Of a stretch of DNA of 64,000 nt, positions 349 through 61,872 are shown one piece after another (within the stretch, counting starts at the first letter, position 1; each line of letters starts with the position of its first letter). The notes beneath the pieces were generated by a model. That model had not been told where the DNA came from. It made no database searches and saw nothing but the letters and a program-made list of their open reading frames with translations. Made by a program: the position numbers and the translations under genes. The stretch covers positions 1,310 through 65,309 of IMG/VR virus record IMGVR_UViG_3300045996_000252; one strand, given 5' to 3'. The stretch is from a virus.

Positions 349-351
349 ACG

Positions 352-642: not shown

Positions 643-658
643 GTAATCCCCTTTGTTT

Positions 659-885: not shown

Positions 886-894
886 ACGCGAATA

Positions 895-970
895 TGGTGT
901 CGCCACACCGGATCGAACGGTGACCTCAAGGGCTTCAACCTAGCGTACAGACCAACTATACGATAGCGAC
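895..970 (-). tRNA. tRNA-Phe(GAA)
   Basis: T-arm caccg-gatcgaa-cggtg. D-arm and acceptor mapped. Anticodon loop rc is TTGAAGC. Confidence 0.7.
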
Positions 971-975
971 ATGTT

Positions 976-1050
976 TGGCTGCGCAGACTTGGATTCGAAC
1001 CAAGATTGCCGGATTCAGAGTCCGTCTTCCTACCATTAGAAGATCACGCA
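976..1050 (-). tRNA. tRNA-Gln(CTG)
   Basis: T-arm cttgg-attcgaa-ccaag. Anticodon loop rc is CTCTGAA. The acceptor register is slightly uncertain. Confidence 0.6.
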
Positions 1051-1055
1051 ATGTG

Positions 1056-1131
1056 TGGCGGTCCCCAAGAGATTCGAACTCTCTGACTCTTGATTGACAA
1101 TCAAGCACCGATACCCTTTGGCTTCGGGACC
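1056..1131 (-). tRNA. tRNA-Asp(GTC)
   Basis: T-loop attcgaa at 1072-1078. Anticodon arm cttga-ttgacaa-tcaag. Confidence 0.7.
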
Positions 1132-1148
1132 ACGCTAATAAGGTTGTT

Positions 1149-1226
1149 TGGTACAGCAGACAGGATTCGAACCTGCACAGCATGCTTGGAAGGCACGAAT
1201 GCTTGACCGTTGAACATCACTGCTGC
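1149..1226 (-). tRNA. tRNA-Gly(TCC)
   Basis: T-loop attcgaa at 1165-1171. Acceptor acagcag/ctgctgc. Anticodon loop rc is CTTCCAA. Confidence 0.7.
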
Positions 1227-1233
1227 ACGTATA

Positions 1234-1310
1234 TGGTCAGGGGCAACGGATTCGAACCGATGCTGCTGGCGTCACAAGCCAGAGTGCTAGGCCACTAACA
1301 CTAGCCCCTA
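1234..1310 (-). tRNA. tRNA-His(GTG)
   Basis: T-loop attcgaa at 1250-1256. Anticodon arm ctggc-gtcacaa-gccag. Confidence 0.75.
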
Positions 1311-1315
1311 ATGAT

Positions 1316-1391
1316 TGGCGCGCCGCAAAGGAATCGAACCCTCACCTACGGGCTTCGAAGGCCCGTGTACTATCCGTTATACGAACGGCGC
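1316..1391 (-). tRNA. tRNA-Arg(TCG)
   Basis: T-loop aatcgaa at 1332-1338. Anticodon arm cgggc-ttcgaag-gcccg. Confidence 0.65.
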
Positions 1392-1397
1392 ATGATT

Positions 1398-1472
1398 TGG
1401 CAGGACGACTCGGATTCGAACCGAGAATAGCAGTTTTGGAGACTGCCGTGATAGCCGTTTCACTATCGACCT
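1398..1472 (-). tRNA. tRNA-Trp(CCA)
   Basis: T-arm ctcgg-attcgaa-ccgag. Anticodon arm gcagt-tttggag-actgc. Confidence 0.75.
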
Positions 1473-1478
1473 ATGATT

Positions 1479-1555
1479 TGGTCGGTACCGTGTGAATCGA
1501 ACACACCTTCACGTGCTTATCAGGCACGCCCTTTCCACCAGACAGGCAGATACCG
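1479..1555 (-). tRNA. tRNA-Ile(GAT)
   Basis: T-arm gtgtg-aatcgaa-cacac. Anticodon arm cgtgc-ttatcag-gcacg. Confidence 0.65.
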
Positions 1556-1625
1556 AAGGCTGCGGCTGACGCACTCCTTGTGCGCCACGTAATCCTCCCG
1601 TGCATAGGAGGGCCACAGAAATGTT

Positions 1626-1700
1626 TGGAGAGCCGAGTCGGGATCGAACCGACACCCTTGAGGGTAAGAACCTCCTGCACCACCGTTGTGCTACCGGCCC
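1626..1700 (-). tRNA. tRNA-Lys(CTT)
   Basis: T-arm gtcgg-gatcgaa-ccgac. Anticodon loop rc is TTCTTAC. Confidence 0.65.
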
Positions 1701-1705
1701 ATGTA

Positions 1706-1780
1706 TGGCGTCCCACACAGGAATCGAACCTGCATCGTATCCTTCGCAGGGATACATCCTATCCGTTGAACGAATGGGAC
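1706..1780 (-). tRNA. tRNA-Arg(GCG)?
   Basis: T-loop aatcgaa at 1722-1728. Anticodon arm tatcc-ttcgcag-ggata. Confidence 0.6.
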
Positions 1781-1786
1781 AATGTT

Positions 1787-1860
1787 TGGTGAGTCCGGTA
1801 GGGATCGAACCTACGACCATGTGCTTAAAAGGCACTTGCGACTACCGCTGCGCCACGGAC
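1787..1860 (-). tRNA. tRNA-Lys(TTT)
   Basis: T-arm gtagg-gatcgaa-cctac. Anticodon loop rc is CTTTTAA. Confidence 0.7.
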
Positions 1861-1867
1861 CCATGTT

Positions 1868-1953
1868 TGGCTGGCATGATAGGAGTCGAACCTATACGTA
1901 TCTTTCAACGCGTGGTTAACAGCCACGTGCGGCTACCATTTCGCCACATGCCA
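1868..1953 (-). tRNA. tRNA-like, 86 nt, anticodon arm reads GTT (Asn?) but carries a 15-nt variable region
   Basis: T-arm atagg-agtcgaa-cctat. Acceptor tggcatg/catgcca is perfect. Anticodon arm cgtgg-ttaacag-ccacg. The 15-nt insert between T-arm and anticodon arm is atypical for Asn. Confidence 0.5.
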
Positions 1954-2423
1954 ACGCTAATACGAGGGTTCTTACGTAGGAATATACCCACAACCTACAC
2001 ATGTAATGTGAGTAGTTTTACCCCATACTCAGGGGTCATATGACAGGATTGTTGGTTCCTGCAAGGCCGGTAACGATCCAATTAACAGTTAGATGACCGT
2101 CCAACTCACGCCGGGTTCCACCCTCACGCTTCGACTTTGGTAAGTCTTGCACAATCCTTACGGTCCCATACCTATGTATTACTTCCGGGGTGGCTGTTAC
2201 ACCACTTGCGCTTTTTACGCTACGTGCCCCGCCTACGCCTCGTTAGAAACGTTATTAGCGGTACATATGTCTGAGGGTTATAAGCCCTCATTATCAAATC
2301 GACGGTTCAGAACCAAGACTTCACCGACAACCCTGCTCAAGCGTCTTACTTACGTGTCGCAAGTGCAGTCGCGAGTTGCACGTGTCCACGACCTCCATCC
2401 GTCTATACCGGACGCTCCTGATT

Positions 2424-2510
2424 TGGTGCCTTGGGAGAGATTCGAACTCTCGTACCCCGAAGGGGACTGGTTTACAGCCAGCCTGCTTTATCCTCTTGCA
2501 TACCTTGGCA
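2424..2510 (-). tRNA. tRNA-Tyr(GTA), class II
   Basis: T-arm gagag-attcgaa-ctctc. Variable arm cccc-gaa-gggg. Anticodon arm ctgg-tttacag-ccag. Acceptor stem has 2 A-A mismatches. Confidence 0.65.
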
Positions 2511-2514
2511 TGAT

Positions 2515-2589
2515 TGGCGACCCTACAAGGATTCGAACCTTGTCCTAAGGCTTAGAACACCCATATGCTGTCCGTTACACTATAGGGCC
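2515..2589 (-). tRNA. tRNA, isotype undetermined
   Basis: T-arm caagg-attcgaa-ccttg. Acceptor gacccta/tagggcc. I could not fold the anticodon arm cleanly. Confidence 0.5.
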
Positions 2590-2594
2590 ATGTA

Positions 2595-2679
2595 TGGCGG
2601 AGACAGAGAGAGTCGAACTCCCACAACCTTTCGGTCATCAACGGGTTCAAACCGCATAAGCACGCCAATGCGTGTCTCC
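2595..2679 (-). tRNA. tRNA-Ser(TGA), class II
   Basis: T-loop agtcgaa at 2611-2617. Acceptor ggagaca/tgtctcc is perfect. Long variable arm. Anticodon loop gttcaaa. Confidence 0.65.
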
Positions 2680-2688
2680 GCGCTAGTA

Positions 2689-2752
2689 TGGACGCCATGT
2701 ATCTGCTTCGAAAAGACTCCGGTGGCATAGCCACGGGGATACTCCGCGTCCG
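2689..2752 (-). other. truncated tRNA-like element (about 62 nt; acceptor-like ends but no canonical T-arm)
   Basis: The ends ggacgcc/cgcgtcc pair. It occupies the slot between two tRNAs with the same atg...tgg punctuation. No TTCGAA T-loop is present. Confidence 0.3.
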
Positions 2753-2759
2753 TATATGT

Positions 2760-2835
2760 TGGTGCAAGTGGCGAGAGTCGAACTCGCGTTCCCCTACTTG
2801 GCAAGCAGGTATGTTGGCCGCTACACCACACATGC
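2760..2835 (-). tRNA. tRNA-Gly(GCC)
   Basis: T-arm gcgag-agtcgaa-ctcgc. D-arm and anticodon arm mapped. Anticodon loop rc is TTGCCAA. Confidence 0.7.
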
Positions 2836-2890
2836 ACAGAATTCAGTTGTTAACGCGGCGTTGCCAGTTGCCGCTCCGTTTGTTGTTACT

Positions 2891-2919
2891 ACTATAGCAG
2901 GGCTGTCAAGGCTTGTCAA
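2891..2919 (-). promoter_or_regulatory. sigma70/SigA-like promoter internal to the tRNA array, firing leftward
   Basis: On the minus strand: TTGACA (rc of 2914-2919), then 17 nt, then TATAGT (rc of 2891-2896). A second TTGACA (rc of 2904-2909) lies only 7 nt from the -10 box. Confidence 0.6.
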
Positions 2920-2937
2920 CCCCTAATTTTGAGAGTG

Positions 2938-3025
2938 TGGCGGATAGTGCAGGATTCGAACCTGCGGTACCTTGCGGTACACTTAGGTAGCAACCAAGCG
3001 CTTTCGTCCACTCAGCCAACTATCC
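2938..3025 (-). tRNA. tRNA-Ser(GCT), class II
   Basis: T-arm gcagg-attcgaa-cctgc. Acceptor ggatagt/actatcc is perfect. Long variable arm gtac...gtac. Anticodon arm cttag-gtagcaa-ccaag. Confidence 0.7.
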
Positions 3026-8709: not shown

Positions 8710-9099
8710 TTAGTTCGACTCTACGAACCCCATTTGCAGTAGCAGCGGAGCGTAGAGTGGTTCGTCGCCCATTTCAATCGTACCATTCGGTAGAATCCAA
8801 ATGACATACGGGCGGCGACGTTTCTGCTTATAGCCAATGGCATATACGCGAAAGCCGGGGACATTCTCCCCGCCCGCTCCAATGGAACCGAACACTCGGC
8901 TCTTGATAATCGGCTTGGCCCCTTCGGGCACCTGACACGCTACCACTGGCAGTGTAGTATTTCCAGTCGGGATCAGTGAAATCTCTTTCGTTTGATTCAA
9001 CTGCTCTTTTGCAGCCCATCCTTTTTCATCTAGGCTGAATTTGTGGTTGCTGCCGTCATTGAGTTGAAGGGCAACCTCGTATTTAAAGGGTAGTGCCAT
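8710..9099 (-). CDS. hypothetical protein
   Basis: 129-aa ORF in the tail-fibre region. Confidence 0.4.
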   Translation of the reverse strand: MALPFKYEVALQLNDGSNHKFSLDEKGWAAKEQLNQTKEISLIPTGNTTLPVVACQVPEGAKPIIKSRVFGSIGAGGENVPGFRVYAIGYKQKRRRPYVIWILPNGTIEMGDEPLYAPLLLQMGFVESN

Positions 9100-9650: not shown

Positions 9651-10532
9651 TTACTTCGCCCTAATGCGGCGATACCACGTACCACGCTCCAACGGAACGG
9701 GCAGTGTAAACCTAGCGAGGTTCCCAACAGCGGTGTTGGGTACGCCAGATGTGAGCATTGACACCCACGCGGTGCCGTTGTAGTATTCCCATCCTGTAGC
9801 ACTCACGCTTGAGTCATAGAATCGGTAATTACCTGTGTTGAATGCTGCCGTTCTGTCGAACTCTAGTTCGAATGAAACCGCTCCGCCACCAAGGGCAGGA
9901 ACGGTAAACTCCACGGCAGGCGTCATGTCGGTCAATAGTTCTCGGTTGCTAGGTGTAGCCCACACGGGACCGGGCACCGCGTTGATCTGAGCATCCATAG
10001 TGAACGAGCCACCATAAACGCGCTCGATCATGGCGTTGGCGGTAAACGATCCACTGTAGACAGTAGGAATGATGCCTGTAGGAATTTCCAACTCGGCCCA
10101 TGACACAAACACGTCGCGCCGTACGCCGGGGTTGCCACCTACGGTACCTGTTACTTCAAACTCGACCGACAAGGTAGCCCATTCAGCGCCAGAGATAGCG
10201 CCTGTGATAGTCTGCGCCTGTTGAGTCCATACCTCAGTGATTAGGTTATGCGTGAAGGTGTGCAACACGGTTGCGCCCTTCTTAAATCGCACGATAAGGT
10301 TTCTATCGTTGCCACCAGACAAATCCTTGGCATATGCGTATCGCAACGTCTTGGTTCCAGCCTGCGGAGGCAATCCGGTAGACAAGCCAATAGCGCATAT
10401 GCTATTGTTGCCAGAGCCAACCGAAATGTATGAGAGGTCGTCGCGCACTGCGTCGTTGATCTGTCCATACAGCGGCGTCGGGAACCAAGTGCCTACGGCT
10501 ATGTCACTGTTGGGTCGAATGAACTGAGCCAT
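9651..10532 (-). CDS. tail fibre-like protein with two GSFT repeats and the shared C-terminal domain
   Basis: 293 aa. Contains 'SGSFTANAMIERVYGGSFTMDAQI'. Its C-terminal 100 aa align by eye with the C-terminus of 7414..8676 (TGWEYYNGTAW...RFT.P.PL...W.RR.RA). Confidence 0.55.
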   Translation of the reverse strand: MAQFIRPNSDIAVGTWFPTPLYGQINDAVRDDLSYISVGSGNNSICAIGLSTGLPPQAGTKTLRYAYAKDLSGGNDRNLIVRFKKGATVLHTFTHNLITEVWTQQAQTITGAISGAEWATLSVEFEVTGTVGGNPGVRRDVFVSWAELEIPTGIIPTVYSGSFTANAMIERVYGGSFTMDAQINAVPGPVWATPSNRELLTDMTPAVEFTVPALGGGAVSFELEFDRTAAFNTGNYRFYDSSVSATGWEYYNGTAWVSMLTSGVPNTAVGNLARFTLPVPLERGTWYRRIRAK

Positions 10533-33977: not shown

Positions 33978-34673
33978 TCATGTTACTCCCTTTGTCAAGG
34001 CCGCAAATGATAGCGGCATCTTTTGCTCGATCATTCCTCCAATAGCGTGTGCATACTGGCGAATCTCATATTGCGCGTGTTTGCTGGCACGCAACTCGTA
34101 GAAGTGCATCCAGTTGCGGAAGTTACCTGTCACGTACATTTCGCTGTAGATACCCACTGGCAGGACGCTACGTGCCAGTTCCCTTGCCACACCATCGGCC
34201 AACATATTCTGGTACGCATCCCACGCTACGTTATATGCGTCTTCATAGTTTTCCGCAAGTGAGTCGTTTAACCTATCATCTTCCGTGTCGATACTACTTT
34301 GCCTGTTATCGGGGTCAGGAACCCTAGCCTTATCAGGCCAGAAGAAATCTCGCTCCAATGCCTTGTATCGAGCCGAAAGTTCGTTGTACGAGAACGTCCG
34401 GTGACGCTGCCACTCCCGTATCACGAAGATCGGTGCCTTGACGTAGAACTTAAAGGTCGCATGCTCAAACGGAGTCATGTGCCCGTTGTCGGCAAGAAAG
34501 TTGATCAGTCGCTCATCTGGTGCGCCACGCCAGTCAGGCATGACCGCACCATTGCTGATGCGTGCCGCCTGAACAACGCTAGCGTCGGTACCCATCGAGT
34601 CAACCAACTCCAACTTGCCTGCGTTAAGAACGTCCACTATTCGGCTTCCAACTTGTCTGCCTTCTTGGCGCAA
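33978..34673 (-). CDS. thyX: flavin-dependent thymidylate synthase ThyX
   Basis: The ThyX signature 'REWQRHRTFSYNELSARY' (RHR...S...R) is present. Size is 231 aa. Confidence 0.8.
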   Translation of the reverse strand: MRQEGRQVGSRIVDVLNAGKLELVDSMGTDASVVQAARISNGAVMPDWRGAPDERLINFLADNGHMTPFEHATFKFYVKAPIFVIREWQRHRTFSYNELSARYKALERDFFWPDKARVPDPDNRQSSIDTEDDRLNDSLAENYEDAYNVAWDAYQNMLADGVARELARSVLPVGIYSEMYVTGNFRNWMHFYELRASKHAQYEIRQYAHAIGGMIEQKMPLSFAALTKGVT

Positions 34674-35452: not shown

Positions 35453-35647
35453 CTAAACCATATCCTGATCTACGATATCGTATACAGTGAACGTTCCGTC
35501 CTCATTCACGTCAAGGTCAAGATCGAGAATGATCTTGGTAGGCAGACCCTTGATCCCCTCTGCTTCTTCGTTCCACGAGATAATGCCGGTAACGCTTCTC
35601 TGAACTCCTTCTTCCATCATAAACCTCTTAGCACTTACTATTTCCAC
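35453..35647 (-). CDS. hypothetical protein
   Basis: 64-aa ORF. Confidence 0.3.
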   Translation of the reverse strand: MEIVSAKRFMMEEGVQRSVTGIISWNEEAEGIKGLPTKIILDLDLDVNEDGTFTVYDIVDQDMV

Positions 35648-37961
35648 ATACCTGACACTTCATGCACCCTTCCTCGCGGACGAACGCGGCGCTGCCGCAC
35701 TGTGTACATATCTCAGGTGTAAACCCGGTTGAGGGTGCTAGCACCTGCGCTGTCGCGGGCACTTCTGTTCGAACTGGCTCCACAGGTACATCGCCCATGC
35801 TAGCGTCCCTCAATGCTTCTCCTACTGCTGTGCTTAGTGATGGTTGCATTTTACTGTATCCACCAACACCTGTCAACTGCTCCGCTATCACTTCCTTGGA
35901 AATGCCGTATCGAAGTCCAAGGCTGATCAAACGTCCTAAGCCCTCAGCCCATTCACTTATGTCGCTTGACGCTCGCCCCACTTGGACAAACGCTTCAATT
36001 GGTCCGTTATCCTCTGCGTAGTTGACCGTGACGAACGCATGCCCATGCTTCGTTCTCTTGCGCTGTGTAACGCCAAAGACTTTCTCCGGTCGCATATAAG
36101 GACTTGCTGTGTGTGTATCGTGAGATTCAATCTTTTCCTTTTCTTCTTCCTTGGGCCGCGATAATACAACTCCTCGGTTGCATCCATCACGGAAGTAACT
36201 AATTCCCTTTAGGCCACTATCATAGCACAGTCGGTACAGTTTGTCAACATCTTCGACGGTGTGGCTATTTGGAGCGTTAACCGTCTTGGAAATTGACGAG
36301 TCGATGTACTTCTGCGCCGCAGCCTGAATTGCCACGTGTTCCTCGACCGATAGTTGGTCGGCGGTCACGAAATAACTAGGTGGCGTATCAGTGCCTAGCG
36401 GGTCGTTTTCTTTTAGCCATTCCTCGTAGGGCTTTACACGCATGGTGCTCTTGCCCATGCGGTCGTTACGCTCGTACTCCAATGCGAAGAAAGGCTCTAG
36501 GCCGGAGTTGACGCCCGCAAGCATGGACGTGGTACCCGTAGGTGCTTGGGTCAGCAAGAACAGGTTTCGTAGTCCAAACTCGTCTATATGAGCGTGCAAA
36601 TCCTCTGGAATGTCCCTCAGGTAAGGTGCGTCCAGCATGGACGAGTCCCAACCCGGTGCTGCCCCCTTCTCCTTCGCCAGTAGCGTGCTCGCCCATAGCG
36701 CTTCTTCCTTCATCATGCTGTACACCAACTCGGTCCACGATATAGACGCCTCTGACCCGTAACGCACGCCAAGGTACGCGAACATATCCGCTAGGCCCAT
36801 AGCGCCCAAGCCAATACGGCGTAGTTTCATCTGGCTCTCGCGAATCTCAGGAATGTCGTCCATGTAGTGAGACTTGTCGATCACGTTGTCTAGGAACCGA
36901 ATTGACGTTCGAACGTCTGCCCGGAATGCAGCATCATCGAAATACTTCTCGGTTCTGCCGTCGCCCCATGTGAAGGTACGCTCCTTGACGTATGCGGCCA
37001 GATTGATGCTGGCAAGGTTGCACACGCTGTGAGCGCCAAGTCCCTGCTCGCCGCACGGGTTCACGCAGATGATCTTCTCGATAGCACCAGCGGTGCTCAT
37101 CTTTTGGTAGCGCTCTAGGAATACGACTCCCGGCTCACCGTTATCCCAAGCACCTTCACAGATTTTATTCCACAATTCTCTGGCACGGAGAGTTCGATAT
37201 ACACGGGTAGGTAGCCCACGCTCTTTCCATTCTTGTAAATCTCCCGCCCAAACGGTGTTATAATCGCTGTGTGTCGTGTCGGGGAATTCCAACTCCCACT
37301 GCTCGTCATTCTCAACTGCCCTCATAAATGAATCTGAAACGGCGACACTGATGTTCGCGTTTGTAATCTTGGACGAATCCCTCTTTGCATCAGTAAATTC
37401 AATAATGTCTGGATGCCAGTCCCACAGCATGAACATCGCTGCCCCACGTCGCGAGCCGCCTTGGATAACTTCTCCGACAGCAGTTGAAGCAACGTCCATC
37501 CACCCCACAGCCCCCGATGAAGTTCCGTTGACTCTAGACAGATGACTACCTCGTGGCCGCAGGGTTGACCAGTTAATACCCACTCCACCCCCTCGGGACA
37601 TGATCTGTACCATTGTGTTAATCGTGTCCATGATAGCGTCACGGCTGTCTGCTCCACTACTTCGGTGAGGGTCTGCTCTAACGGGGATGACAAAGCAGTT
37701 GTATGCCATAGTCTCGTTTCCCGCGCCAGCACTGGCAAGGATACGCCCGCCCGGAACGAACTTGAAGCCGTCAAGGATTCGGTAGAAGTCTCTGGTTTCT
37801 TCGGGCGTTTCCGCCATAGCATCTGCCACCCGCGCAAAGGTGTCAGCAGGAGTTCTTTCAATTTGCTCTCCATTCTTATCTCGCAGGGCGTATCTGTCCC
37901 ACCAGATATCGAACTGCTTTTGGGTCATGCCCATAGGTATGATTTTATCCGTTAGTGTCAA
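35628..37961 (-). CDS. nrdJ: ribonucleotide reductase class II (adenosylcobalamin-dependent) NrdJ, with a C-terminal zinc ribbon
   Basis: Motifs 'SRGGGVGINWSTLRPRGS' and 'VNPCGEQGLGAHSVCNLASINL'. C-terminal 'CTQCGS...CMKCQVCG'. Confidence 0.85.
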   Translation of the reverse strand: MTLTDKIIPMGMTQKQFDIWWDRYALRDKNGEQIERTPADTFARVADAMAETPEETRDFYRILDGFKFVPGGRILASAGAGNETMAYNCFVIPVRADPHRSSGADSRDAIMDTINTMVQIMSRGGGVGINWSTLRPRGSHLSRVNGTSSGAVGWMDVASTAVGEVIQGGSRRGAAMFMLWDWHPDIIEFTDAKRDSSKITNANISVAVSDSFMRAVENDEQWELEFPDTTHSDYNTVWAGDLQEWKERGLPTRVYRTLRARELWNKICEGAWDNGEPGVVFLERYQKMSTAGAIEKIICVNPCGEQGLGAHSVCNLASINLAAYVKERTFTWGDGRTEKYFDDAAFRADVRTSIRFLDNVIDKSHYMDDIPEIRESQMKLRRIGLGAMGLADMFAYLGVRYGSEASISWTELVYSMMKEEALWASTLLAKEKGAAPGWDSSMLDAPYLRDIPEDLHAHIDEFGLRNLFLLTQAPTGTTSMLAGVNSGLEPFFALEYERNDRMGKSTMRVKPYEEWLKENDPLGTDTPPSYFVTADQLSVEEHVAIQAAAQKYIDSSISKTVNAPNSHTVEDVDKLYRLCYDSGLKGISYFRDGCNRGVVLSRPKEEEKEKIESHDTHTASPYMRPEKVFGVTQRKRTKHGHAFVTVNYAEDNGPIEAFVQVGRASSDISEWAEGLGRLISLGLRYGISKEVIAEQLTGVGGYSKMQPSLSTAVGEALRDASMGDVPVEPVRTEVPATAQVLAPSTGFTPEICTQCGSAAFVREEGCMKCQVCGNSKC

Positions 37962-38226: not shown

Positions 38227-38300
38227 ATACTCCCCTTGCTCTCTTTATATCTTACTTCGGCTATCTGTAGACCTTATACGTATCTTAGGTATCTTATATA

Positions 38301-38316
38301 TATATACTAGTATATA
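38301..38316. repeat. AT-only 16-bp palindrome TATATACTAGTATATA inside a 40-bp AT tract
   Basis: The sequence equals its own reverse complement. It sits between two leftward genes in an otherwise GC-rich genome. Confidence 0.6.
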
Positions 38317-38330
38317 GGTTGCTCGCTTAG

Positions 38331-38636
38331 TTAGCAAACCTTGCAGTTGCAGATGAACCTGTTGCAAGGCTTGATATGAGGTACCTCGATGGTAAAAATT
38401 CCGAGGGCCAATGATACCGCATCATCTTCTAGGGTGTCAAGTGCCACCAGAGTCTCATTGTCTTTCTCGTATACGTCAAAATTGCCTCGACTGGCTATGC
38501 CGTAGGCGAGCATAGTCCACCCTGTTTCGTCAAGTGCGGCCTGTGCGATATACGGCATGTCGGAAAGGTCTTGCGACTTCCACATCCTGTTGTTGAACGC
38601 AATACGAGGTTCTCTCAATGTCTTTGCTCCCTTCAA
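38331..38636 (-). CDS. hypothetical protein, first gene of the leftward operon
   Basis: 101-aa ORF with a C-terminal Cys cluster (CNRFICNCKVC). Confidence 0.35.
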   Translation of the reverse strand: MKGAKTLREPRIAFNNRMWKSQDLSDMPYIAQAALDETGWTMLAYGIASRGNFDVYEKDNETLVALDTLEDDAVSLALGIFTIEVPHIKPCNRFICNCKVC

Positions 38637-39020
38637 CGAGTATACACTAAGCCTGCTAGAAAGTCAAATTGTAACCTCCCACCTGATATAGCAAATTAGC
38701 CTCCTAAAACGCCCCTAATTCGGTCTTTTGGGCGATTTAGGGATATATCACGTTTTTGGCGTTTGTGAGGCTCCTGTAGGCGTTTTTGGGGGTTCATTTG
38801 CGGGTTTACGGGCTTTTTCGACATGGGCGCAGGTGTGCATGATCAATATGAGGAAAATAGGCGTTTATTCGGTTAACGCGAAGTTTGAAAATAGGTCATA
38901 TTTAGTCGTGTACCCTGCGCGAACGTCTTTTTGGCGTCTTTGGAGCGCATTTGAGGGGGCTATCGTGCGTGTGAAGTCTGATAGTGCGCCATATCGGGCT
39001 GTAAGAGTCGCGAGCACAAA

Positions 39021-39036
39021 TAGAACGTACGTTCTA
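39021..39036. promoter_or_regulatory. operator-like 16-bp perfect palindrome TAGAACGTACGTTCTA, copy 1
   Basis: Exact palindrome. Identical copies also at 39116-39131, 39220-39235, 39944-39959, 40053-40068, 41148-41163 and 41209-41224. A near-copy lies at 40004-40019. Confidence 0.6.
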
Positions 39037-39115
39037 CGCATGCACGCGTGCTAGTAGTAGAGTCCTGTGCGCGCCTCTCGCACGCGCATGGTAGAACGGT
39101 GTGCATGCATGCATA

Positions 39116-39131
39116 TAGAACGTACGTTCTA
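39116..39131. promoter_or_regulatory. operator palindrome, copy 2
   Basis: Exact TAGAACGTACGTTCTA. Confidence 0.6.
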
Positions 39132-39140
39132 GTAAGCATG

Positions 39141-39213
39141 TGCATGGTGCATGGTGGGCGCATGGTGCATGGTGCATGGTGCGCACACTGCATGCATGGT
39201 GCATGGTGCACGG
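39141..39213. repeat. CATGGTG heptamer tandem array (about 8 copies)
   Basis: Sequence tgcatggtgcatggtgggcgcatggtgcatggtgcatggtgcgcacactgcatgcatggtgcatggtgca. Confidence 0.7.
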
Positions 39214-39219
39214 CGCATA

Positions 39220-39235
39220 TAGAACGTACGTTCTA
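39220..39235. promoter_or_regulatory. operator palindrome, copy 3
   Basis: Exact TAGAACGTACGTTCTA. Confidence 0.6.
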
Positions 39236-39238
39236 CAC

Positions 39239-39284
39239 TGTGGATAACTACCCTACTAGGCGCAATATTGGTGGATAACTACCG
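39239..39284. promoter_or_regulatory. two direct repeats TGGATAACTACC, each holding a DnaA-box-like TGTGGATAA / GGTGGATAA
   Basis: 39239-39247 TGTGGATAA is the rc of TTATCCACA. 39270-39278 GGTGGATAA is the rc of TTATCCACC. The 12-bp repeat is at 39241-39252 and 39273-39284. Confidence 0.45.
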
Positions 39285-39355
39285 CTTGACAAGCATGATC
39301 CGCCCGTGAGACACTCCGCTAGTCAAGGTAACTACTCCACTAGAGGCTATGCACG

Positions 39356-39841
39356 GTGAACGGTTACAACGTTGAAGTACGCAAGTGGACATATGGCGCT
39401 ATGCAGTACGGTTGCAAGCGTGACGCTATCGCCGCCTACGAGGGGACGCTCCCCATGCTAGGGAACGGATTCATGCGCACGGTGTACAAGGGCGCGCGCG
39501 GCATCGTATACAAGGTCGCGGGCGGTCGCGGTCGCCACGCCGCCAATGACAATGCCGCCAACGTTAGCGAGTACGAGCGCATGGTGCGCATCGGACGATT
39601 TGACGCTACGCTCGCCACGCCGTGCACCCTGTACATGGTCAACGGTGTGGCGATTCTCGCTATGGTGCTTCGACCGGGCGATTCTGCTAGTGCGAGCGGG
39701 CGAGCATGGGACGTGCTGCATGCGAAAGTTCAGCGCTACAATCGCGAGAGTGGCGACCATATCGGTGATATGCATGGGCAGAATTGGCGACTCACACCTA
39801 TGGGCCGTCCCACGGTGACCGACGTAGGGGACGTGTTCTAA
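39356..39841 (+). CDS. hypothetical protein, first gene of the rightward early operon
   Basis: 161-aa ORF. Three operators lie upstream and a terminator lies downstream. Confidence 0.5.
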   Translation: MNGYNVEVRKWTYGAMQYGCKRDAIAAYEGTLPMLGNGFMRTVYKGARGIVYKVAGGRGRHAANDNAANVSEYERMVRIGRFDATLATPCTLYMVNGVAILAMVLRPGDSASASGRAWDVLHAKVQRYNRESGDHIGDMHGQNWRLTPMGRPTVTDVGDVF

Positions 39842-39863: not shown

Positions 39864-39895
39864 AGAGGGCCGCGAAAGCGGTCCTCTTTTTTGTC
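39864..39895 (+). terminator. rho-independent terminator
   Basis: Stem agagggccgc / gcggtcctct (10 bp, one G-U) with a gaaa loop, followed by TTTTTTGT. Confidence 0.8.
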
Positions 39896-39943: not shown

Positions 39944-39959
39944 TAGAACGTACGTTCTA
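39944..39959. promoter_or_regulatory. operator palindrome, copy 4
   Basis: Exact TAGAACGTACGTTCTA. Confidence 0.6.
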
Positions 39960-40003
39960 GCACGCCTACGCCTACGCGTTCGGGTTCGCATTAGGGTTCG
40001 CAT

Positions 40004-40019
40004 TAGAACGTACGTTCGC
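40004..40019. promoter_or_regulatory. operator palindrome, imperfect copy (TAGAACGTACGTTCGC)
   Basis: 14 of 16 bases match. Confidence 0.45.
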
Positions 40020-40052
40020 ATTAGCCTACGCGTTAGGGTTCGCGTTCGCAAT

Positions 40053-40068
40053 TAGAACGTACGTTCTA
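40053..40068. promoter_or_regulatory. operator palindrome, copy 5
   Basis: Exact TAGAACGTACGTTCTA. Confidence 0.6.
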
Positions 40069-40139: not shown

Positions 40140-40168
40140 TTGACACGGTGGAGCGGAGCGCATAAGGT
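40140..40168 (+). promoter_or_regulatory. sigma70-like promoter
   Basis: TTGACA at 40140-40145, 17 nt spacer, TAAGGT at 40163-40168. It lies 40 nt upstream of the ORF at 40208. Confidence 0.5.
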
Positions 40169-40207: not shown

Positions 40208-40456
40208 GTGCATACAATGACTATCGACACTCTCGCAATCGCATGGGCCGACCAGCCGGACTTCACGGATGACCAGTCTAACGACTACACCATGCGGGGC
40301 GGATACGCGGTCGAGCCTATCGCCCGTCGCAATCGCTCGCGGGGCATGCAGGCCGAATGCGGACACTGCGGCACCATTCTTGACACCGCGCATGACCTCG
40401 TTCACGTCGAATCCTGCGAGCGCGAGCATCGCCCATACCGATACGGTGCAGCGTGA
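40208..40456 (+). CDS. hypothetical Cys/His protein
   Basis: 82 aa with CGHC...H..H..C. Confidence 0.45.
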   Translation: MHTMTIDTLAIAWADQPDFTDDQSNDYTMRGGYAVEPIARRNRSRGMQAECGHCGTILDTAHDLVHVESCEREHRPYRYGAA

Positions 40457-40692: not shown

Positions 40693-41073
40693 ATGGATAC
40701 TACGCTCATTCGTTCAGGTCGAGGCGTCAAGCATGCGAACGCGGCGCTCGCGGCGGAGTTCTTCGACACGCTCGCCAATACGCACGGCAACAGCGCACAG
40801 GCGAAAAGCCTCCGGTCCATTCTGAAGCGTGCAGAGGAGCGGTTCGCGCCAAAGCGTGAGAGCATCCTCGCCCGCATCGCGGCGGACGAGCAGGACGAGC
40901 CAGTGCAGGCGGACGAGCCGGTGCAGGCGGAGCCGGTCAAGGTGCGCAAGCCGCGCAAGGTCGAGCCGTCACAGGTCGAGGCTGTCGAGGCGGACGACGC
41001 ACGAGAGGCGGACTTCGTGACCCGCATGCGAGCACTCGCGGCTCAGGCCGAAAGTGAGGGCGTGAGGGTCTAA
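40693..41073 (+). CDS. hypothetical protein
   Basis: 126 aa with an RBS (aggagacacgaatc ATG). Contains an 'EPVQADEPVQAEPV' repeat. Confidence 0.5.
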   Translation: MDTTLIRSGRGVKHANAALAAEFFDTLANTHGNSAQAKSLRSILKRAEERFAPKRESILARIAADEQDEPVQADEPVQAEPVKVRKPRKVEPSQVEAVEADDAREADFVTRMRALAAQAESEGVRV

Positions 41074-41090: not shown

Positions 41091-41130
41091 AGAGAGAGTG
41101 TACGAGCAATCGTACACTCTCTTTTTTTTG
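41091..41130 (+). terminator. rho-independent terminator
   Basis: Stem gagagtgtacg / cgtacactctc, followed by a T8 run. Confidence 0.8.
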
Positions 41131-41379: not shown

Positions 41380-41480
41380 GCGCGCGCGTATATAGCCTTC
41401 GCGTTCGCCTTCGCCTTCGCGTAAGCCTTCCCACTAAGCCTTCGCACCTAATAGATAAAAAATATTGAATTTCGCCTTCG
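41380..41480. repeat. GCCTTCGC direct-repeat array
   Basis: Sequence cgcgttcgccttcgccttcgcgtaagccttcc...gccttcgc...cgccttcgc. The same motif occurs at 42841-42860, 47127-47150 and 48030-48056. Confidence 0.5.
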
Positions 41481-51586: not shown

Positions 51587-53359
51587 ATGCCACAATTAGA
51601 ACCCATAGAAGAAGGACGAGCGCAGTTCGGCCCCGAGGCTATCGACACTTGCCTAAGACAACGCGAACCGGGTACTCCATGCGTGCCGTGTGGTCCGTCT
51701 ATCCAGCGCCGCGATGCAGGCTGGAATTGGGACGCAAGCCTCGGCCAGTGGATCGAGCCTATGTACGAGCGTTGGGCGCGACGATGGGAAGAAATCTCCG
51801 GGTCATTTGATACCATATACAATGCCACGACTACTACCAATAACACTTTCACAGGCTGGAATTCATATCCACCACCATCTACACAGGAGGCATCACCTAT
51901 GCCGGACTTCAATGGACACAACACGTTCACTCGTGTGAGCACAAACGATAGGATGATCTACTGCTTCCAGTGCGATTCGCGAACCCAAGAAAGCAACATG
52001 TTCACGTGCAGCGAGGAAGGCGACTGGTTCTGTCGCCCCTGTGCTGAGGCGCACATTCACAATGGTGATCGCTGCGATTCGTGCGGGTTCCGCCTGCTCA
52101 ACGGAGGGGCTGCTACCGAGTGCGAAACCTGCGCCGTTGACGTGTGCCATGATCACATGCGACAAGACCACACTGGCTGCGCAATGGGCGGATACGATGG
52201 CCGTGATGACGGACGCTACTCTGGTCGTCCTCCGATTGAGGGCTACGGTCGAGAGGCCACGCTTGAGTATCTGGACGAGGATTACACCTTCCACCCGCTC
52301 GCTCTTGGCAAGCGCGCCGCTGCGGTCGAACTTGAGGTCGAGTGGGACGAGGAAACGAACAACGGTCGGGTGAACCTGCCCTACGCAGTTGGCATCGGTC
52401 ATGATGGCAGCCTTACGAACGGGATCGAAGTTACGACTCCGCCCGCCAAGGGTGCGCGTCTTGCCGAGGTCATGCTGGACACCACTCGCATCCTTGCGGC
52501 CAATGGCTACAGGGGTGAGACAACGTGCGGAATGCACACTCACATCGACCTTCGTGACAAGGTGGAAGACAAGCGGTTCCTATCGCATCTGTTCAACGCC
52601 TTCTTCGCAATCGAGGATATCCTGTACGCCATGCAGGGCGCTTCACGCTACAGCAACTCGTACAGCGTGCCACTGCGAGCCAACTACAAGTTCTTCGACA
52701 TGTACGGTCAGCGGTCGGGTGATTTCGACTACACGTTCTACCGCATGCCTAAGAACCTTGAGTCGCAGCGTGTCATTGCGCGTGAGAAGACGCAGAAGTA
52801 CGGCAGTCCACGCTACGCGGCGTTCAATTTCCACAGCGTCTACTACCGTGGCTCGCTTGAGTGCAGACTGCACGAGGGCACGGTCGATGGTGAGAGTGCG
52901 CTGATGTGGATTGACCTGTTGCAGAGCATCATCGCTCGTGTCGAGGATGGGCATTCGTACTCGGTCATGAAGAATCTTGCGAGCCAGATTGTGACGAAGA
53001 AGAAGGTACGTGCCTTCGCTCGTTACTTCCGGCTCACGGACAAGCAGACTCAGTACGTGATGGACAGAATCGAGAGCGGTCAGGGCTTTGGCTTTGAACT
53101 GCCGGACGGCATCATGTGGGGTGTCCCGATCAAGGGTCGTCCGACTCGCGAGCCTCGCGCTCCGCGTCGGCGCATGCTATACGCTGGCAGCATGGTGACG
53201 TGCCATGCGTGCTCGCACACGTGGTTGCTGGCTGGCAATCAGACAGAGTGCCCGCGCTGTTGGGGTGCCTTGATTGACAGATACGGCGCTAGGACTTACA
53301 ATAGGGTGAGTAGCAATACTTACTACAATCTCAACATTTCATCGTCATCGTTTAGGTAA
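51587..53359 (+). CDS. multi-zinc-ribbon domain fused to a glutamine-synthetase-like amidoligase (Amidoligase_2-like)
   Basis: 590 aa. The N-terminal region (aa 120-200) has at least 5 CxxC pairs. The C-terminal region carries 'TTCGMHTHIDL' and the overall character of a carboxylate-amine ligase. It is co-operonic with the GATase-II gene. Confidence 0.5.
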   Translation: MPQLEPIEEGRAQFGPEAIDTCLRQREPGTPCVPCGPSIQRRDAGWNWDASLGQWIEPMYERWARRWEEISGSFDTIYNATTTTNNTFTGWNSYPPPSTQEASPMPDFNGHNTFTRVSTNDRMIYCFQCDSRTQESNMFTCSEEGDWFCRPCAEAHIHNGDRCDSCGFRLLNGGAATECETCAVDVCHDHMRQDHTGCAMGGYDGRDDGRYSGRPPIEGYGREATLEYLDEDYTFHPLALGKRAAAVELEVEWDEETNNGRVNLPYAVGIGHDGSLTNGIEVTTPPAKGARLAEVMLDTTRILAANGYRGETTCGMHTHIDLRDKVEDKRFLSHLFNAFFAIEDILYAMQGASRYSNSYSVPLRANYKFFDMYGQRSGDFDYTFYRMPKNLESQRVIAREKTQKYGSPRYAAFNFHSVYYRGSLECRLHEGTVDGESALMWIDLLQSIIARVEDGHSYSVMKNLASQIVTKKKVRAFARYFRLTDKQTQYVMDRIESGQGFGFELPDGIMWGVPIKGRPTREPRAPRRRMLYAGSMVTCHACSHTWLLAGNQTECPRCWGALIDRYGARTYNRVSSNTYYNLNISSSSFR

Positions 53360-53372
53360 AGGAGAAACATAT

Positions 53373-54638
53373 ATGTGTGGACTTTGTGGGTCATTCACTC
53401 AGCAGGGCGTAGTCCTGTCGAAGCGTGACCGGACGCAACGTGCACGAGTGCTGGAAGGATTGCTGCTTGCCAATCAGGTGAGAGGTACCGACAGTGCTGG
53501 TGTCGCTGCCATCAAGTACGATGGGACGTACGATCTGTTGAAGGTCGCAACCCATCCCTATAGATTCGTGTCACGCGACGATGTGCAGGCGCTACTGCGC
53601 ACGGATGCTCCGCTCATGATTGCTCATACTCGTATGACCAGCATGGGCAATGATGTGACCGATGAGAACGCCCACCCTTTCGTAGAGGGTAGCGTCATCG
53701 GTGCGCACAACGGCATCATCAACAACTACATGCAGATCGACAGGACTGTGAACGTGGACTCGCAGGCGGTGTTCCGCTTGCTTGACTCGTACCCTGACGC
53801 ATACGATAGGGTGTTCCCGAAGGTGTCGGGATCGTGCGCCCTGTCGTGGTGGGATGCACGTGAGCCAGACGCTATGTTCCTAGTGGCTCACAACAATCCC
53901 ATGTCTGCGGCGTTCGTGCCGAGGATCAAGACGATCTTCTGGACGAGCGTGCTTGAGCACCTTGAGGCAGTGCTGCGCACAGCGTACGGCAACGCGGTGC
54001 AGTACATGGAAGTGAAGAAGGATACGATCTATCGCATTCCGGGCGACAACGTGTACGAGTGGCAGGAAGCCAAGGTTGAGTTCGGAACCGACTCATGGGG
54101 TTCATCCTACAGTTCGCAGATTCGTGTCTACGATCACGGCGGATACGGGTGGGATGATGCCGAGGAAGAAGAACTCTGGCGCACGGGGTTTACCTCTAAG
54201 GGACTGAGTTCTGTCCCAAAAGCGACTGCGGGATCGCCAACTGCCGAGGGCGGCACTACACTCCCGCAGCCAATGACACCAGAGGAGGAGGCCAGATACG
54301 AGTCCTATTGGGACAAGATGATGGCCGAGGACTCAGCAAGAGAGAGCGAAAGCGACTCAAGCGAGAGCGAAAGCGAGCAGCCCGTGAGGCTGCACGCACT
54401 CTCTGATGAGGAGTATGCGCAGATTGCGAACGAGCGGTTTGAGGTAGACGACCTTGACGGAACGCTCGATTGCATGTATTGTGATAAGCCCTTGGGTGAC
54501 AAGGGTGTGTGGGATAACGGGCTACAGATGATGCTGTGTAAGTATTGTCAGAAGTGGTGGGATGATTACGGTCATTACACCACCAAGCCCGTTCCAAGTG
54601 AAGCAGCGGTGAAAAAGTACCCGTTGCTTCTACAGTAG
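53373..54638 (+). CDS. class II (Ntn) glutamine amidotransferase with an acidic linker and a C-terminal zinc ribbon
   Basis: Begins 'MCGLCG' (Cys2 nucleophile). 'AHTRMTSMGN...NAHPF' and 'GAHNGIINNY' are GATase-II motifs. C-terminal 'CMYCDKP...CKYC'. Confidence 0.7.
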   Translation: MCGLCGSFTQQGVVLSKRDRTQRARVLEGLLLANQVRGTDSAGVAAIKYDGTYDLLKVATHPYRFVSRDDVQALLRTDAPLMIAHTRMTSMGNDVTDENAHPFVEGSVIGAHNGIINNYMQIDRTVNVDSQAVFRLLDSYPDAYDRVFPKVSGSCALSWWDAREPDAMFLVAHNNPMSAAFVPRIKTIFWTSVLEHLEAVLRTAYGNAVQYMEVKKDTIYRIPGDNVYEWQEAKVEFGTDSWGSSYSSQIRVYDHGGYGWDDAEEEELWRTGFTSKGLSSVPKATAGSPTAEGGTTLPQPMTPEEEARYESYWDKMMAEDSARESESDSSESESEQPVRLHALSDEEYAQIANERFEVDDLDGTLDCMYCDKPLGDKGVWDNGLQMMLCKYCQKWWDDYGHYTTKPVPSEAAVKKYPLLLQ

Positions 54639-55943: not shown

Positions 55944-55965
55944 TTAAACGAAAGTTTGAAATTTT

Positions 55966-55990
55966 GTTTATTTTCAAAATTGCGAAACGG
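55966..55990. promoter_or_regulatory. conserved AT-rich motif GTTTATTTTCAAAAttGCGAAA, copy 2
   Basis: Matches the block at 51465-51489 together with its flanks. Confidence 0.4.
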
Positions 55991-56196: not shown

Positions 56197-56370
56197 CATG
56201 CCAAACTTGGAGAAGGCAGAGCGCCGAGACAAGAAGCATGACAAGAAGAAGAATGGCATGCGAGTGAACGGAAAGAACATCGCCCTGTTGCTACGAGCAC
56301 AGGAGAAGCGAGACAAGGAACGACTGGAAAGGAGAGAACGTGAGCGGACAGATGGTGATGACACCGGCTG
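56197..56370 (+). CDS. small basic protein (Xis/DNA-binding candidate)
   Basis: MPNLEKAERRDKKHDKKKNGMRVNGKNIALLLRAQEKRDKERLERRERE..., immediately upstream of the integrase, which it overlaps. Confidence 0.3.
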
Positions 56371-57281
56371 AAATCTTCTGCGAAATGCAGACGAGCGACA
56401 ACACAAAGCGGGCATACCGTAACGATATCAACAAGTGGCAGCAGTTCCTCGCGTCACGAGGCGGGGAAGAAACGACCGAGACTGCGCTTGCGTTCAAGGC
56501 TGCGCTAGAGAACACGTACTCACCTTCCACGGCACAGCGTACGTGGGGCACAGTGGCCGCATTCTACGGCTGGATGAAGGGTACGGGTCGCGTTGACGCG
56601 ACTCCGTTTCATGGGATTAAGTCGCCTACACGACCTATTAATGAAGCCCCACCTGTCCCTAGCGATGAAGCAATTGCCAAGTTACTCAACGCTTGCAAAG
56701 ATGGAACGCCGTATGGCAAGCGTGCTTGGGTCATCATCAGCCTCTTGCTCAACGGACTCCGAGCACAGGAAGTTTGCGACGTTAAGATCAAGGATATTGT
56801 CCGAGACACCAACAACAAGCAGTGGATTCTCAACGTACTCGGGAAGGGTGACAAGTGGAGGGCCGTCCCGCTCACAAGTGAGGCGCAGCAGGCGATCTAC
56901 GAGTTCTTCGAAAACTCTATCACGTGGAACGACAGGTACCTAGTGACGAGCGTGATGGCGGGCGAGAAGTTGAACGTCAAGTCAGTGTGGACTGCGGTTC
57001 GCGTGTACGCTCTCAAGGCAGGGCTTAAGGACGAGAACATTCATCCTCACGCACTGCGCCACCACTACGCCACGCGCCTTGTACGTTCTGGCGTGAACAT
57101 CTTCACGTTGCAGAAGTTGATGGGACATGCTCGCGCAGATACCACACAACGCTACGTCCAGATGGACTACAGCGACCTATCTATCGCAGTGGAACTCGAC
57201 CCGCTACACAAGTCGGACGAGTCACACGGCATCCTATTCGTAGACAAGGCATTGGAGCACGCAGATGACGTTCCCTTTTAA
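56340..57281 (+). CDS. int: tyrosine integrase / site-specific recombinase
   Basis: C-terminal 'HALRHHYATRLVRSGVNIFTLQKLMGHARADTTQRYVQMD' carries the H-x-x-R ... Y catalytic box. Confidence 0.8.
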   Translation: MSGQMVMTPAEIFCEMQTSDNTKRAYRNDINKWQQFLASRGGEETTETALAFKAALENTYSPSTAQRTWGTVAAFYGWMKGTGRVDATPFHGIKSPTRPINEAPPVPSDEAIAKLLNACKDGTPYGKRAWVIISLLLNGLRAQEVCDVKIKDIVRDTNNKQWILNVLGKGDKWRAVPLTSEAQQAIYEFFENSITWNDRYLVTSVMAGEKLNVKSVWTAVRVYALKAGLKDENIHPHALRHHYATRLVRSGVNIFTLQKLMGHARADTTQRYVQMDYSDLSIAVELDPLHKSDESHGILFVDKALEHADDVPF

Positions 57282-61398: not shown

Positions 61399-61872
61399 CT
61401 AAGCGTTGTTCCTTTCTTCGCCGCGTACTGGCGAAGCAGTTCCTCCGCTTGTTCTTCCAGATTGTCCATCGGTATCCATCTTCTCGGTTAGTTTGCCGAT
61501 GGCACGCTTGCGCCGCATGTGTACGGTGCGTCCCTTCGACTGTGCTAACTCGTTAGCGGTACGCTCATCAACACCCTCGGCCCACTGCAATAGAGTCTGT
61601 CTCTGCTCAGGTGACATTTCGGTTGCCATGATGTTCTCCGCTTCAACTAGGTCAAGGTGAAAGTCATTCCCTATCTGAGAAGTGTACACATCTTGACCCT
61701 CTAGGTCTAGTGAAGACCCATGAGTAATGATGGAGCCGCCGTGATTGTATAGCGCTGCACGAATGTACGCTCGTTCAGCAATCAGACGCCGAAGGTACTG
61801 TGTAGTATAGTTGACCGGATGCTTTTCCGTTTGCTCGATAACTATAGTACGGGTGCTACTTCGATTGTCCAC
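61399..61872 (-). CDS. sigma-70 region-4-like HTH protein (putative phage sigma factor / transcription regulator)
   Basis: 'SPEQRQTLLQWAEGVDERTANELAQSKGRTVHMRRKRAIGKL' resembles sigma region 4. The start is uncertain. Confidence 0.4.
   Translation of the reverse strand: MDNRSSTRTIVIEQTEKHPVNYTTQYLRRLIAERAYIRAALYNHGGSIITHGSSLDLEGQDVYTSQIGNDFHLDLVEAENIMATEMSPEQRQTLLQWAEGVDERTANELAQSKGRTVHMRRKRAIGKLTEKMDTDGQSGRTSGGTASPVRGEERNNA

Follow-up and report, generated by a model that had tools for sequence, protein, structure and literature searches.

In the 64,000-nucleotide stretch of viral DNA analysed here (hereafter the window), which is part of a large tailed phage from an uncultivated soil lineage, a 720-bp intergenic gap (38637-39355) marks the point at which a leftward block of genes and the first rightward block diverge. 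We propose, with a probability of roughly 0.55, that this gap is an early-gene control region wired to the host proteins LexA and DnaA and not a replication origin, and that it would form the regulatory head of the rightward early operon, built largely from sites for host proteins; binding, regulation and the host are all inferred from the DNA sequence. The sites in question are three perfect copies of a bacterial SOS (LexA) box within the gap, five further boxes in two clusters downstream, and a pair of DnaA boxes at the putative first early promoter.

Conservation of these sites was assessed in five phages, namely the window and four syntenic relatives (L007, L009, L011 and L014), which are soil-metagenome phage contigs reached through proteins homologous to the first rightward one (53-63% identity). 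The divergent gap is present in each of the four, and since the proteins flanking it have diverged substantially, phylogenetic footprinting was feasible. Two more contigs, L008 and L010, are duplicate assemblies, and a third, L015, encodes part of the first early protein, with 100% identity to that of the window. Between 12 and 64 kb of sequence per phage was available for the box search.

SOS boxes and a DnaA-box pair at the divergence point

The host-type sites of the window are as follows (position, strand where one is assigned, description).

39021-39036: SOS box O1, TAGAACGTACGTTCTA, perfect
39116-39131: SOS box O2, TAGAACGTACGTTCTA, perfect; 95 bp from O1, ~9.0 helical turns
39220-39235: SOS box O3, TAGAACGTACGTTCTA, perfect; 104 bp from O2, ~9.9 helical turns
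39239-39247, minus strand: DnaA box 1, TGTGGATAA on the plus strand; perfect reverse-complement match to TTATCCACA
39270-39278, minus strand: DnaA box 2, GGTGGATAA on the plus strand and TTATCCACC on the minus strand; one mismatch to TTATCCACA
39944-39959, 40004-40019 (2 mismatches) and 40053-40068: second SOS-box cluster; equivalents in L007, L009 and L011
41148-41163 and 41199-41214: third SOS-box cluster; equivalents in L007 and L009

The perfect 16-bp palindrome TAGAACGTACGTTCTA has eight matches in the window where 0.01 would be expected, all in three clusters between 39.0 and 41.2 kb, and it is retained base for base in each of the five phages. In every phage the boxes are confined to the opening 2-3.5 kb of the early region, where they form three clusters; none lies elsewhere in the sequence available for each phage. 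Across ~30 phage copies the GTAC at the centre and the outer TA hardly vary; the variants differ chiefly at outer positions (TCGAAC, CCGAAC, TTCTG), with a single central substitution. The palindrome fits the published LexA/DinR consensus AGAACGTACGTTCG (PMC2174512), with GAAC-N4-GTTC half-sites. Within IMG/VR, three isolated single matches to the 16-mer were taken as chance. An earlier sequence-only reading of this DNA had placed three palindromic operators in the gap; they are indeed present, at 39021, 39116 and 39220, but had not been recognised there as consensus host SOS boxes.

The identity of the palindrome emerges from its bacterial occurrences. With one genome taken per species, the exact 16-mer was found in 112 places against ~139 by chance, a total that is not above chance, and the taxonomy of these loci is skewed: among 80 matches listed, 24 are in Chloroflexota, ~23 in Syntrophaceae, Smithellaceae or 'Deltaproteobacteria', 12 in Firmicutes and 8 in Actinobacteria, and the species genomes among the matches listed are concentrated in lineages with a GAAC-N4-GTTC SOS box. 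At the 24 Chloroflexota loci the 16-mer is intergenic and lies 5-60 nt upstream of the start of an open reading frame (ORF), and in bacteria it typically sits between a TTGAC and a TAnnnT -10 element. Seven representative ORFs behind Chloroflexota 16-mers were scanned for domains (LexA_DNA_bind with Peptidase_S24, IMS, PHP, RecA and DUF6504) and read as LexA, Y-family polymerases, a DnaE2-type PHP polymerase, a RecA-like ImuA and a DUF6504 protein. Because lexA, imuA/imuB-like and dnaE2-like genes of Chloroflexota have the same 16-mer immediately before them, we regard the palindrome as the consensus LexA operator (SOS box) of that lineage, and host LexA is likely to bind the phage copies. Judged by the box, the host would be a bacterium with a GAAC-N4-GTTC-type SOS box; Chloroflexota fits the soil origin and a GC content of 52-56%.

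Two other identities were set aside. As sigma-70 promoter cores the palindromes lack a TTGAC 2-3 nt upstream and form no TAnnnT, unlike the host sites; NrdR boxes were considered since the ribonucleotide reductase (RNR) operon starts here, but the sequence is unlike the NrdR motif. On the bacterial side, the SOS box in three Anaerolineae genomes (L040, L064 and L073) precedes a conserved gene whose protein begins MTTNRQF and has a weak FtsK/P-loop match; this gene may be an uncharacterised member of the SOS regulon of Chloroflexota.

Just downstream of O3, the 13-bp direct repeat GTGGATAACTACC occurs at 39240-39252 and 39271-39283. The sequence-only reading had described two direct repeats that each include a DnaA-box match, and both are there, one match being perfect and the other carrying a single mismatch. 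Window-wide, one perfect and nine one-mismatch DnaA boxes were counted against ~14 expected with equiprobable bases, so DnaA boxes are not generally enriched; the 39239/39270 pair is their sole cluster in 64 kb.

Conservation sets this pair apart from its surroundings. A pair of GTGGATAA elements is kept in four of the five phages (the window, L009, L011 and L014), with GTGGATAA invariant in 8 of 8 copies, 5 of which are perfect matches to TTATCCACA and the other 3 of which deviate only at the last consensus position; box 1, TGTGGATAA, is itself invariant in these four phages. An alignment of the four over the interval between the last SOS box and the start codon left just three long invariant blocks: the SOS box, TGTGGATAA and GTGGATAA. 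The invariant core of the DnaA boxes measures 8-9 bp and its flanks diverge. The start-to-start spacing of the boxes is 31, 32, 32 and 31 bp, about three helical turns, with a different spacer sequence in each phage, and both boxes are co-oriented in every phage that has the pair. Invariant cores, fixed spacing and orientation, and diverged spacers are together the signature of a protein-binding site with a specificity equal to that of DnaA. The reading of the repeats as DnaA boxes is probably right, given an 8-9 bp core kept in four divergent phages, and host DnaA, on this footprint, probably binds the pair. Its position is promoter-proximal, ~60-70 bp upstream of the start codon of the first early gene, a geometry that fits DnaA as a transcription factor, either occluding the -35 element or substituting for it.

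Promoters, terminators and repeats around the boxes

The other signals in and near the gap are as follows.

38639-38667, minus strand: predicted leftward promoter, TTGACT-N17-(TG)TATACT; promoter scan 10/12; heads the RNR/ThyX/structural operon
38883-38903, plus strand: promoter-like block, GTTTGAAA-N8-TATTT; kept in all five phages
38980-38995: quasi-palindrome GATAGTGCGCCATATC; in all five phages, inverted in L007
39059-39073, plus strand: conserved block AGAGTCCTGTGCGCG, after an SOS box; in four of the five phages
39136-39218, plus strand: CATGGTG / GGTGCAT heptamer array, in two blocks between O2 and O3
39272-39299, plus strand: putative first early promoter, -35 TGGATA inside DnaA box 2, N16, -10 CATGAT
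39864-39887, plus strand: terminator-like hairpin and T-run after gene 1
40140-40168, plus strand: predicted promoter TTGACA-N17-TAAGGT, upstream of the gene at 40217-40456
41091-41122, plus strand: terminator-like hairpin (15 pairs) and T-run after the gene at 40693-41073

Early units share one order, in which a terminator-like hairpin with a T-run is followed by an SOS-box cluster and then, 70-300 bp on, by a TTGACA-type promoter and its gene. That the gap is a divergent control region, as the sequence-only reading had it, is supported. On its leftward side, a GAGTATACA...AGTCAA block at the predicted promoter is invariant in all five phages. The SOS boxes lie downstream of the promoter-like block at 38883, which may be a promoter driving a rightward transcript across them; the element GTTTGAAA-N7-8-TATTT has a second copy at 55954-55973, also on the plus strand and intergenic (two matches where none is expected), and the GTTTGAAA block may be a promoter for a different sigma factor. 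The quasi-palindrome GATAGTGCGCCATATC is a possible operator for some dimeric protein.

At the putative first early promoter, box 2 is the source of the TGGATA, and the geometry TGGATA-N17-TGcTAnnnT is exact in L009, L011 and L014 (-10 elements TGcTAGGAT, TGcTACGGT and TGcTACAGT). A family-typical GCTTGACA element at 39284-39291, 7-8 bp after box 2, recurs in early regions. A further promoter-like motif, (GGGC)TTGACA-N7-TGnTAYAGT, often followed by GGTGACAAC, is found at 41521, 42881, 45270 and 46488 on the plus strand and at 2891 and 62044 on the minus strand, always co-oriented with the local genes (six matches against 1.1 expected), with many more copies in L007 and L009; its 7-bp spacing is non-canonical, and some copies have another TTGACA 10 bp upstream, which brings the spacing back to 17 bp. 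A sigma-54-like -24/-12 element, TGGCAYGATTCTTGC, is conserved in L009 (~1494-1508), L011 (~444-458) and L014 (~991-1005) and absent from the window phage and from L007. On the far side of the leftward promoter, a TA-run at ~38275-38320 between the first two leftward genes contains the window's least stable 40-mer, and a TA-run is also present in L007 at ~8733-8760; the stretch at 38290-38320 could be a promoter or an easily melted element.

The tandem CATGGTG array that had been described for the gap is present, with seven exact copies (39143, 39150, 39161, 39168, 39175, 39195 and 39202) besides degenerate ones; Tandem Repeats Finder (TRF) gave a period of 7 with 7.3 and 3.7 copies. It sets the 104-bp distance between O2 and O3, and none of the four relatives has it. 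Since the degenerate unit that closes the array, GGCGCAT, doubles as the conserved GCAT-type 5' flank of O3, the array looks to have arisen by slipped-strand expansion of that flank; we lean towards a spacer without sequence-specific function. Several phages have tandem direct repeats of their own between SOS boxes: 7 bp in the window (~10 copies, 39136-39218), 20 bp in L009 (two copies, 1651-1688), 21 bp in L011 (two copies, 599-640) and 18 bp in L007 (three copies plus one more, 9670-9731 and 9845-9870). These have no core in common between phages and could be iterons for a lineage-specific protein or products of slippage. Short GCCTAC / GCCTTC / GTTCGC repeats adjoin SOS-box clusters in early intergenic regions of several relatives (window 39960-40050 and 41395-41447; L009 2479-2512).

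Conservation of the gap concerns DNA only. No ORF within 38637-39355 is conserved among the relatives, and a conserved small ORF was rejected on finding the similarity spread over several frames; a known or structured RNA was likewise rejected, with nothing credible in Rfam and an unfavourable RNAalifold covariation term.

A LexA and DnaA model and its alternatives

Under the reading we favour, host LexA dimers would occupy the three consensus SOS boxes in the gap and the five in the two downstream clusters, each cluster lying between a terminator and the next early promoter, and this occupancy would keep early transcription low. LexA might do so by roadblocking transcription that starts at the promoter-like block at 38883, by forming cooperative or looped complexes, or by way of its titration. 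DNA damage would then lead to RecA-stimulated cleavage of LexA and so release the early genes. Host DnaA would sit on the conserved box pair, whose second member overlaps the -35 TGGATA of the putative first early promoter or, alternatively, lies 8 bp upstream of a TTGACA element; because box 2 overlaps or abuts the promoter in this way, we propose that DnaA would tune the first early promoter to the replication status of the host. The CATGGTG array, as a lineage-specific expansion, would contribute a spacer at most.

Several observations weigh against this model. Its main weakness is the placement of the phage boxes, 70-300 bp upstream of recognisable TTGACA promoters and not within the promoter spacer as at the bacterial loci; boxes outside promoters, unlike those of the host, weaken a simple repression model. 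The near-invariant central GTAC of the phage boxes, set against the variable centre of other host boxes, would fit a more specific binder as well. L007 has no DnaA-box pair, so at least one relative can do without it. Furthermore, a temperate lifestyle is only a possibility, with a single tyrosine recombinase in the window and no prophage relative among the 185,579 species genomes searched for the paired-box pattern.

Some of these points bear directly on what binds the sites. The palindromes, the GTGGATAA repeats or both might be bound not by host LexA and DnaA but by phage-encoded proteins, that is, by a LexA-like repressor or activator or by an unrelated GTGGATAA binder. Beyond the fixed centre and outer TA of the phage boxes, their 5' flank is biased (GCAWW) on a single side only, and in the 64 kb of genome visible many early ORFs belong to no recognisable family; there is also a precedent in the phage GIL01, whose LexA homologue gp6 acts at its own promoter (PMC6182141). 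Against this, the phages share one unchanged operator even though their neighbouring proteins show just 53-63% identity; in phage immunity regions, a phage-specific repressor and its operators normally diverge together. The match of the sites to both the host SOS box and the DnaA-box consensus would also have no easy explanation if host LexA and DnaA were not involved. Among the window ORFs scanned, many of them orphans from an incomplete genome, no helix-turn-helix (HTH), S24, CI-, Cro- or LexA-like protein was detected, and on balance we judge a phage-encoded binder improbable. A still less probable role for the same sites is that of decoys, with eight top-affinity SOS boxes and two DnaA boxes per copy of the multiplying genome soaking up LexA and DnaA, switching on the host SOS response and/or blocking new rounds of host replication. 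Perfect consensus boxes, clustered and mostly outside promoters, would suit a sink, which requires affinity and not position, and both LexA and DnaA are titratable regulators, the E. coli datA locus being the precedent for DnaA titration. Two DnaA boxes nevertheless make a small sink, a fixed 31-32 bp spacing and promoter overlap are unnecessary for one, and the restriction of the boxes to early intergenic regions beside terminators and promoters points to local control; we know of no phage precedent for such decoys. A host DnaA-titrating site had been suggested for the gap, but whereas a datA-like site would have about 4-5 or more clustered DnaA boxes, there are two here and no other cluster in 64 kb. 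Finally, it is very improbable that the GTGGATAA repeats are promoter elements only, duplicated -35-like TGGATA sequences whose resemblance to DnaA boxes is coincidental. In L009, L011 and L014, box 2 does provide a -35-like sequence placed exactly 17 bp from a TG-extended -10, and box 1 of the window also has an AATATT 17 bp on; conservation, however, reaches beyond TGGATA to the full (T)GTGGATAA in all eight copies, these three relatives show no -10 partner for box 1, and TGGATA matches TTGACA at only 4 of 6 positions while the other promoters of this phage family use a perfect TTGACA.

The sequence-only reading had also suggested an origin of replication (oriLyt) here, and the gap does have features in its favour: it is long, conserved, non-coding and dense in repeats, it contains consensus DnaA boxes, it lies at a point of divergent transcription and at the cumulative GC-skew minimum (38-39 kb), and the tandem repeats peculiar to each relative resemble iterons co-evolving with an initiator, which would favour either an origin or a phage-specific binder. 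In such an origin, lytic or plasmid-type, DnaA at the two boxes, perhaps with a phage initiator on the tandem repeats, would open the DNA. No AT-rich unwinding element adjoins the boxes, however: the flanking 40-bp segments have a GC content of 45-55%, ~350 bp separate the boxes from the region's most AT-rich stretch, and the least stable DNA of the window, the TA-run at ~38275-38320, is ~900 bp away. What the basal unwinding system of oriC needs (PMC8287927) is an unwinding region, tandem boxes at most 3 bp apart and, no farther than 16 bp from a box, three or more DnaA-trios (NAN, preferably 3'-GAT-5'). Like that system (PMC8287927, PMC6669920), the phage pair has two boxes in the same orientation with the upstream one closer to consensus; unlike it, the phage boxes are 22-23 bp apart and are accompanied by no AT-rich unwinding region and no conserved run of trios, a TAG TAG beside box 1 being present in the window only, with nothing comparable conserved in L009, L011 or L014. 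No initiator (rep) gene is adjacent, the neighbours being a kinase-like protein and small proteins (an initiator could lie outside the window), and over 20 kb separate the gap from the DnaB-like helicase module (59-64 kb and beyond). L007 lacks the boxes, and the heptamer units are ~57% GC and not conserved. The GC-skew check proposed earlier was run and did return a cumulative minimum at the gap, but this coincides with the switch of coding strand. Taken along the coding strand, GC skew has a positive value in each of the three gene blocks (+0.044, +0.085 and +0.127), and the sign of the skew along the window flips back at 59 kb with gene orientation; since the skew tracks the coding strand, its minimum says nothing about an origin. 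An apparent 1.1-kb gap at 55.1-56.2 kb, considered as an alternative origin, proved on reading to be coding. An origin at the divergent gap is unlikely on this evidence, and for the oriLyt claim the practical outcome is negative: the gap is not a well-supported origin.

Gene context, known systems and implications

The gene blocks surrounding the control region are as follows.

32-3025, minus strand: tRNA array, 21 genes, left end of the window
33978-34673: ThyX gene, leftward block
35628-37961: class II RNR gene, leftward block
38636 downward, minus strand: leftward block, with two small genes, class II RNR, ThyX, terminase and structural genes
38637-39355: intergenic gap, 720 bp, between the leftward gene at 38331-38636 and the rightward gene at 39356-39841
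39356-39841, plus strand: first rightward early gene, 161-amino-acid protein with a predicted minimal protein-kinase-like fold
39356 to ~58.8 kb, plus strand: rightward block, mainly orphan genes
Window end to 59 kb, minus strand: second leftward block, first gene a DnaB-type helicase fragment

The genome exceeds 64 kb and is incomplete, and numerous ORFs are orphans. Members of the rightward block include a DUF7178 protein, an SPFH protein, an RNase T-like exonuclease, an amidoligase/GATase pair and a tyrosine recombinase. The pair of amidoligase and glutamine-amidotransferase genes lies at 51587-54638, the recombinase, which is XerC/D-like, at 56340-57281, and the gene for a 157-amino-acid protein at 61399-61872; the C-terminus of this last protein resembles sigma-70 region 4 by eye, and Pfam gave no match. 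For the 161-amino-acid product of the first early gene, an AlphaFold2 (AF2) model with a pLDDT of 70 led in Foldseek to PDB matches that, among those listed, are all protein kinases, the minimal kinase OspG included, at moderate confidence; its sequence contains the kinase-like motifs VYKV, SEYERM, IGDMHxxN and TDxGD, and from this modelled fold it may be an early host-takeover kinase.

No DNA relatives were found among GenBank phages by megablast or blastn, tblastn with the first early protein gave no matches, and RNR and terminase gave distant matches only. Apart from the syntenic relatives, protein-based searches for the locus reached distant loci (L004, L006, L012 and L013) without the architecture of the window, and one further contig, L005, spans only the far side of the RNR gene. 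The paired-box pattern had no match in 185,579 species genomes or in JGI metagenomes, and yielded neither a prophage relative nor a host.

The closest known systems are the LexA-dependent switch of GIL01 and the LexA/DnaA promoter of uvrB, from which the locus is distinct by its box arrays outside promoters and by the fixed DnaA-box pair on the first early promoter. To our knowledge, few phage switches that borrow host LexA have been described, GIL01 and CTXphi among them, and we know of no described phage early promoter with a conserved DnaA-box pair beside SOS-box arrays. In the Bacillus thuringiensis tectivirus GIL01, host LexA acts at SOS boxes in the P1 promoter together with gp7 and gp6 (PMC4551915, PMC6182141, PMC11511902). 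The window resembles GIL01 in having Gram-positive-type SOS boxes in a phage early region, and it may likewise use host LexA in place of a CI-type repressor; the scan of window ORFs turned up no CI-like gene. It differs in having eight boxes in three clusters over 2.2 kb, mostly upstream of promoters rather than over them, in an added DnaA-box pair, in the lack of any gp7 or gp6 homologue identified in the window, and in a tailed genome of more than 64 kb with at least 21 tRNA genes that is unrelated to tectiviruses. The E. coli uvrB promoter is controlled jointly by LexA and DnaA (PMC6015884), and here too LexA sites and DnaA boxes share one promoter region, so that DNA-damage and replication-initiator signals could be read together. 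Unlike the phage locus, with its fixed conserved box pair on the first early promoter, uvrB is a bacterial repair gene with a different (E. coli type) LexA motif.

Two further systems are instructive by their differences. The oriR of plasmid P1 combines DnaA boxes, GATC-containing heptamers and RepA iterons, and the gap likewise has DnaA boxes beside 7-bp repeats with a 4-bp palindrome (CATG here, GATC in P1). Unlike oriR, however, the gap has no rep gene beside it, the relatives have no iterons in common, and no methyltransferase was seen in the window; the phage heptamers are GC-rich (4 of 7 bases), and none of the relatives has them. The stoperators of mycobacteriophage L5 and the conserved inverted repeats of phiC31 are multi-operator systems, phage-specific and bound by a phage repressor. 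As in those phages, many identical short operators stand in early-operon intergenic regions near terminators and promoters; unlike theirs, the operator here equals the host SOS box and is common to divergent phages.

Extending the LexA and DnaA reading to the phages as a group is a tentative and rather doubtful step: large soil phages, probably infecting Chloroflexota and lacking a repressor of their own, might have wired an early host-takeover operon to LexA through SOS-box arrays and to DnaA through a fixed pair of boxes, and the amplified sites may drain both proteins. The exact match to an SOS box is in any case a clue for host prediction in a phage family without cultured relatives. If binding is confirmed, this would be a phage sensing both arms of the bacterial replication-stress response, and the locus, if the reading is true, would offer a first view of how phages of a poorly studied soil phylum control their genes.

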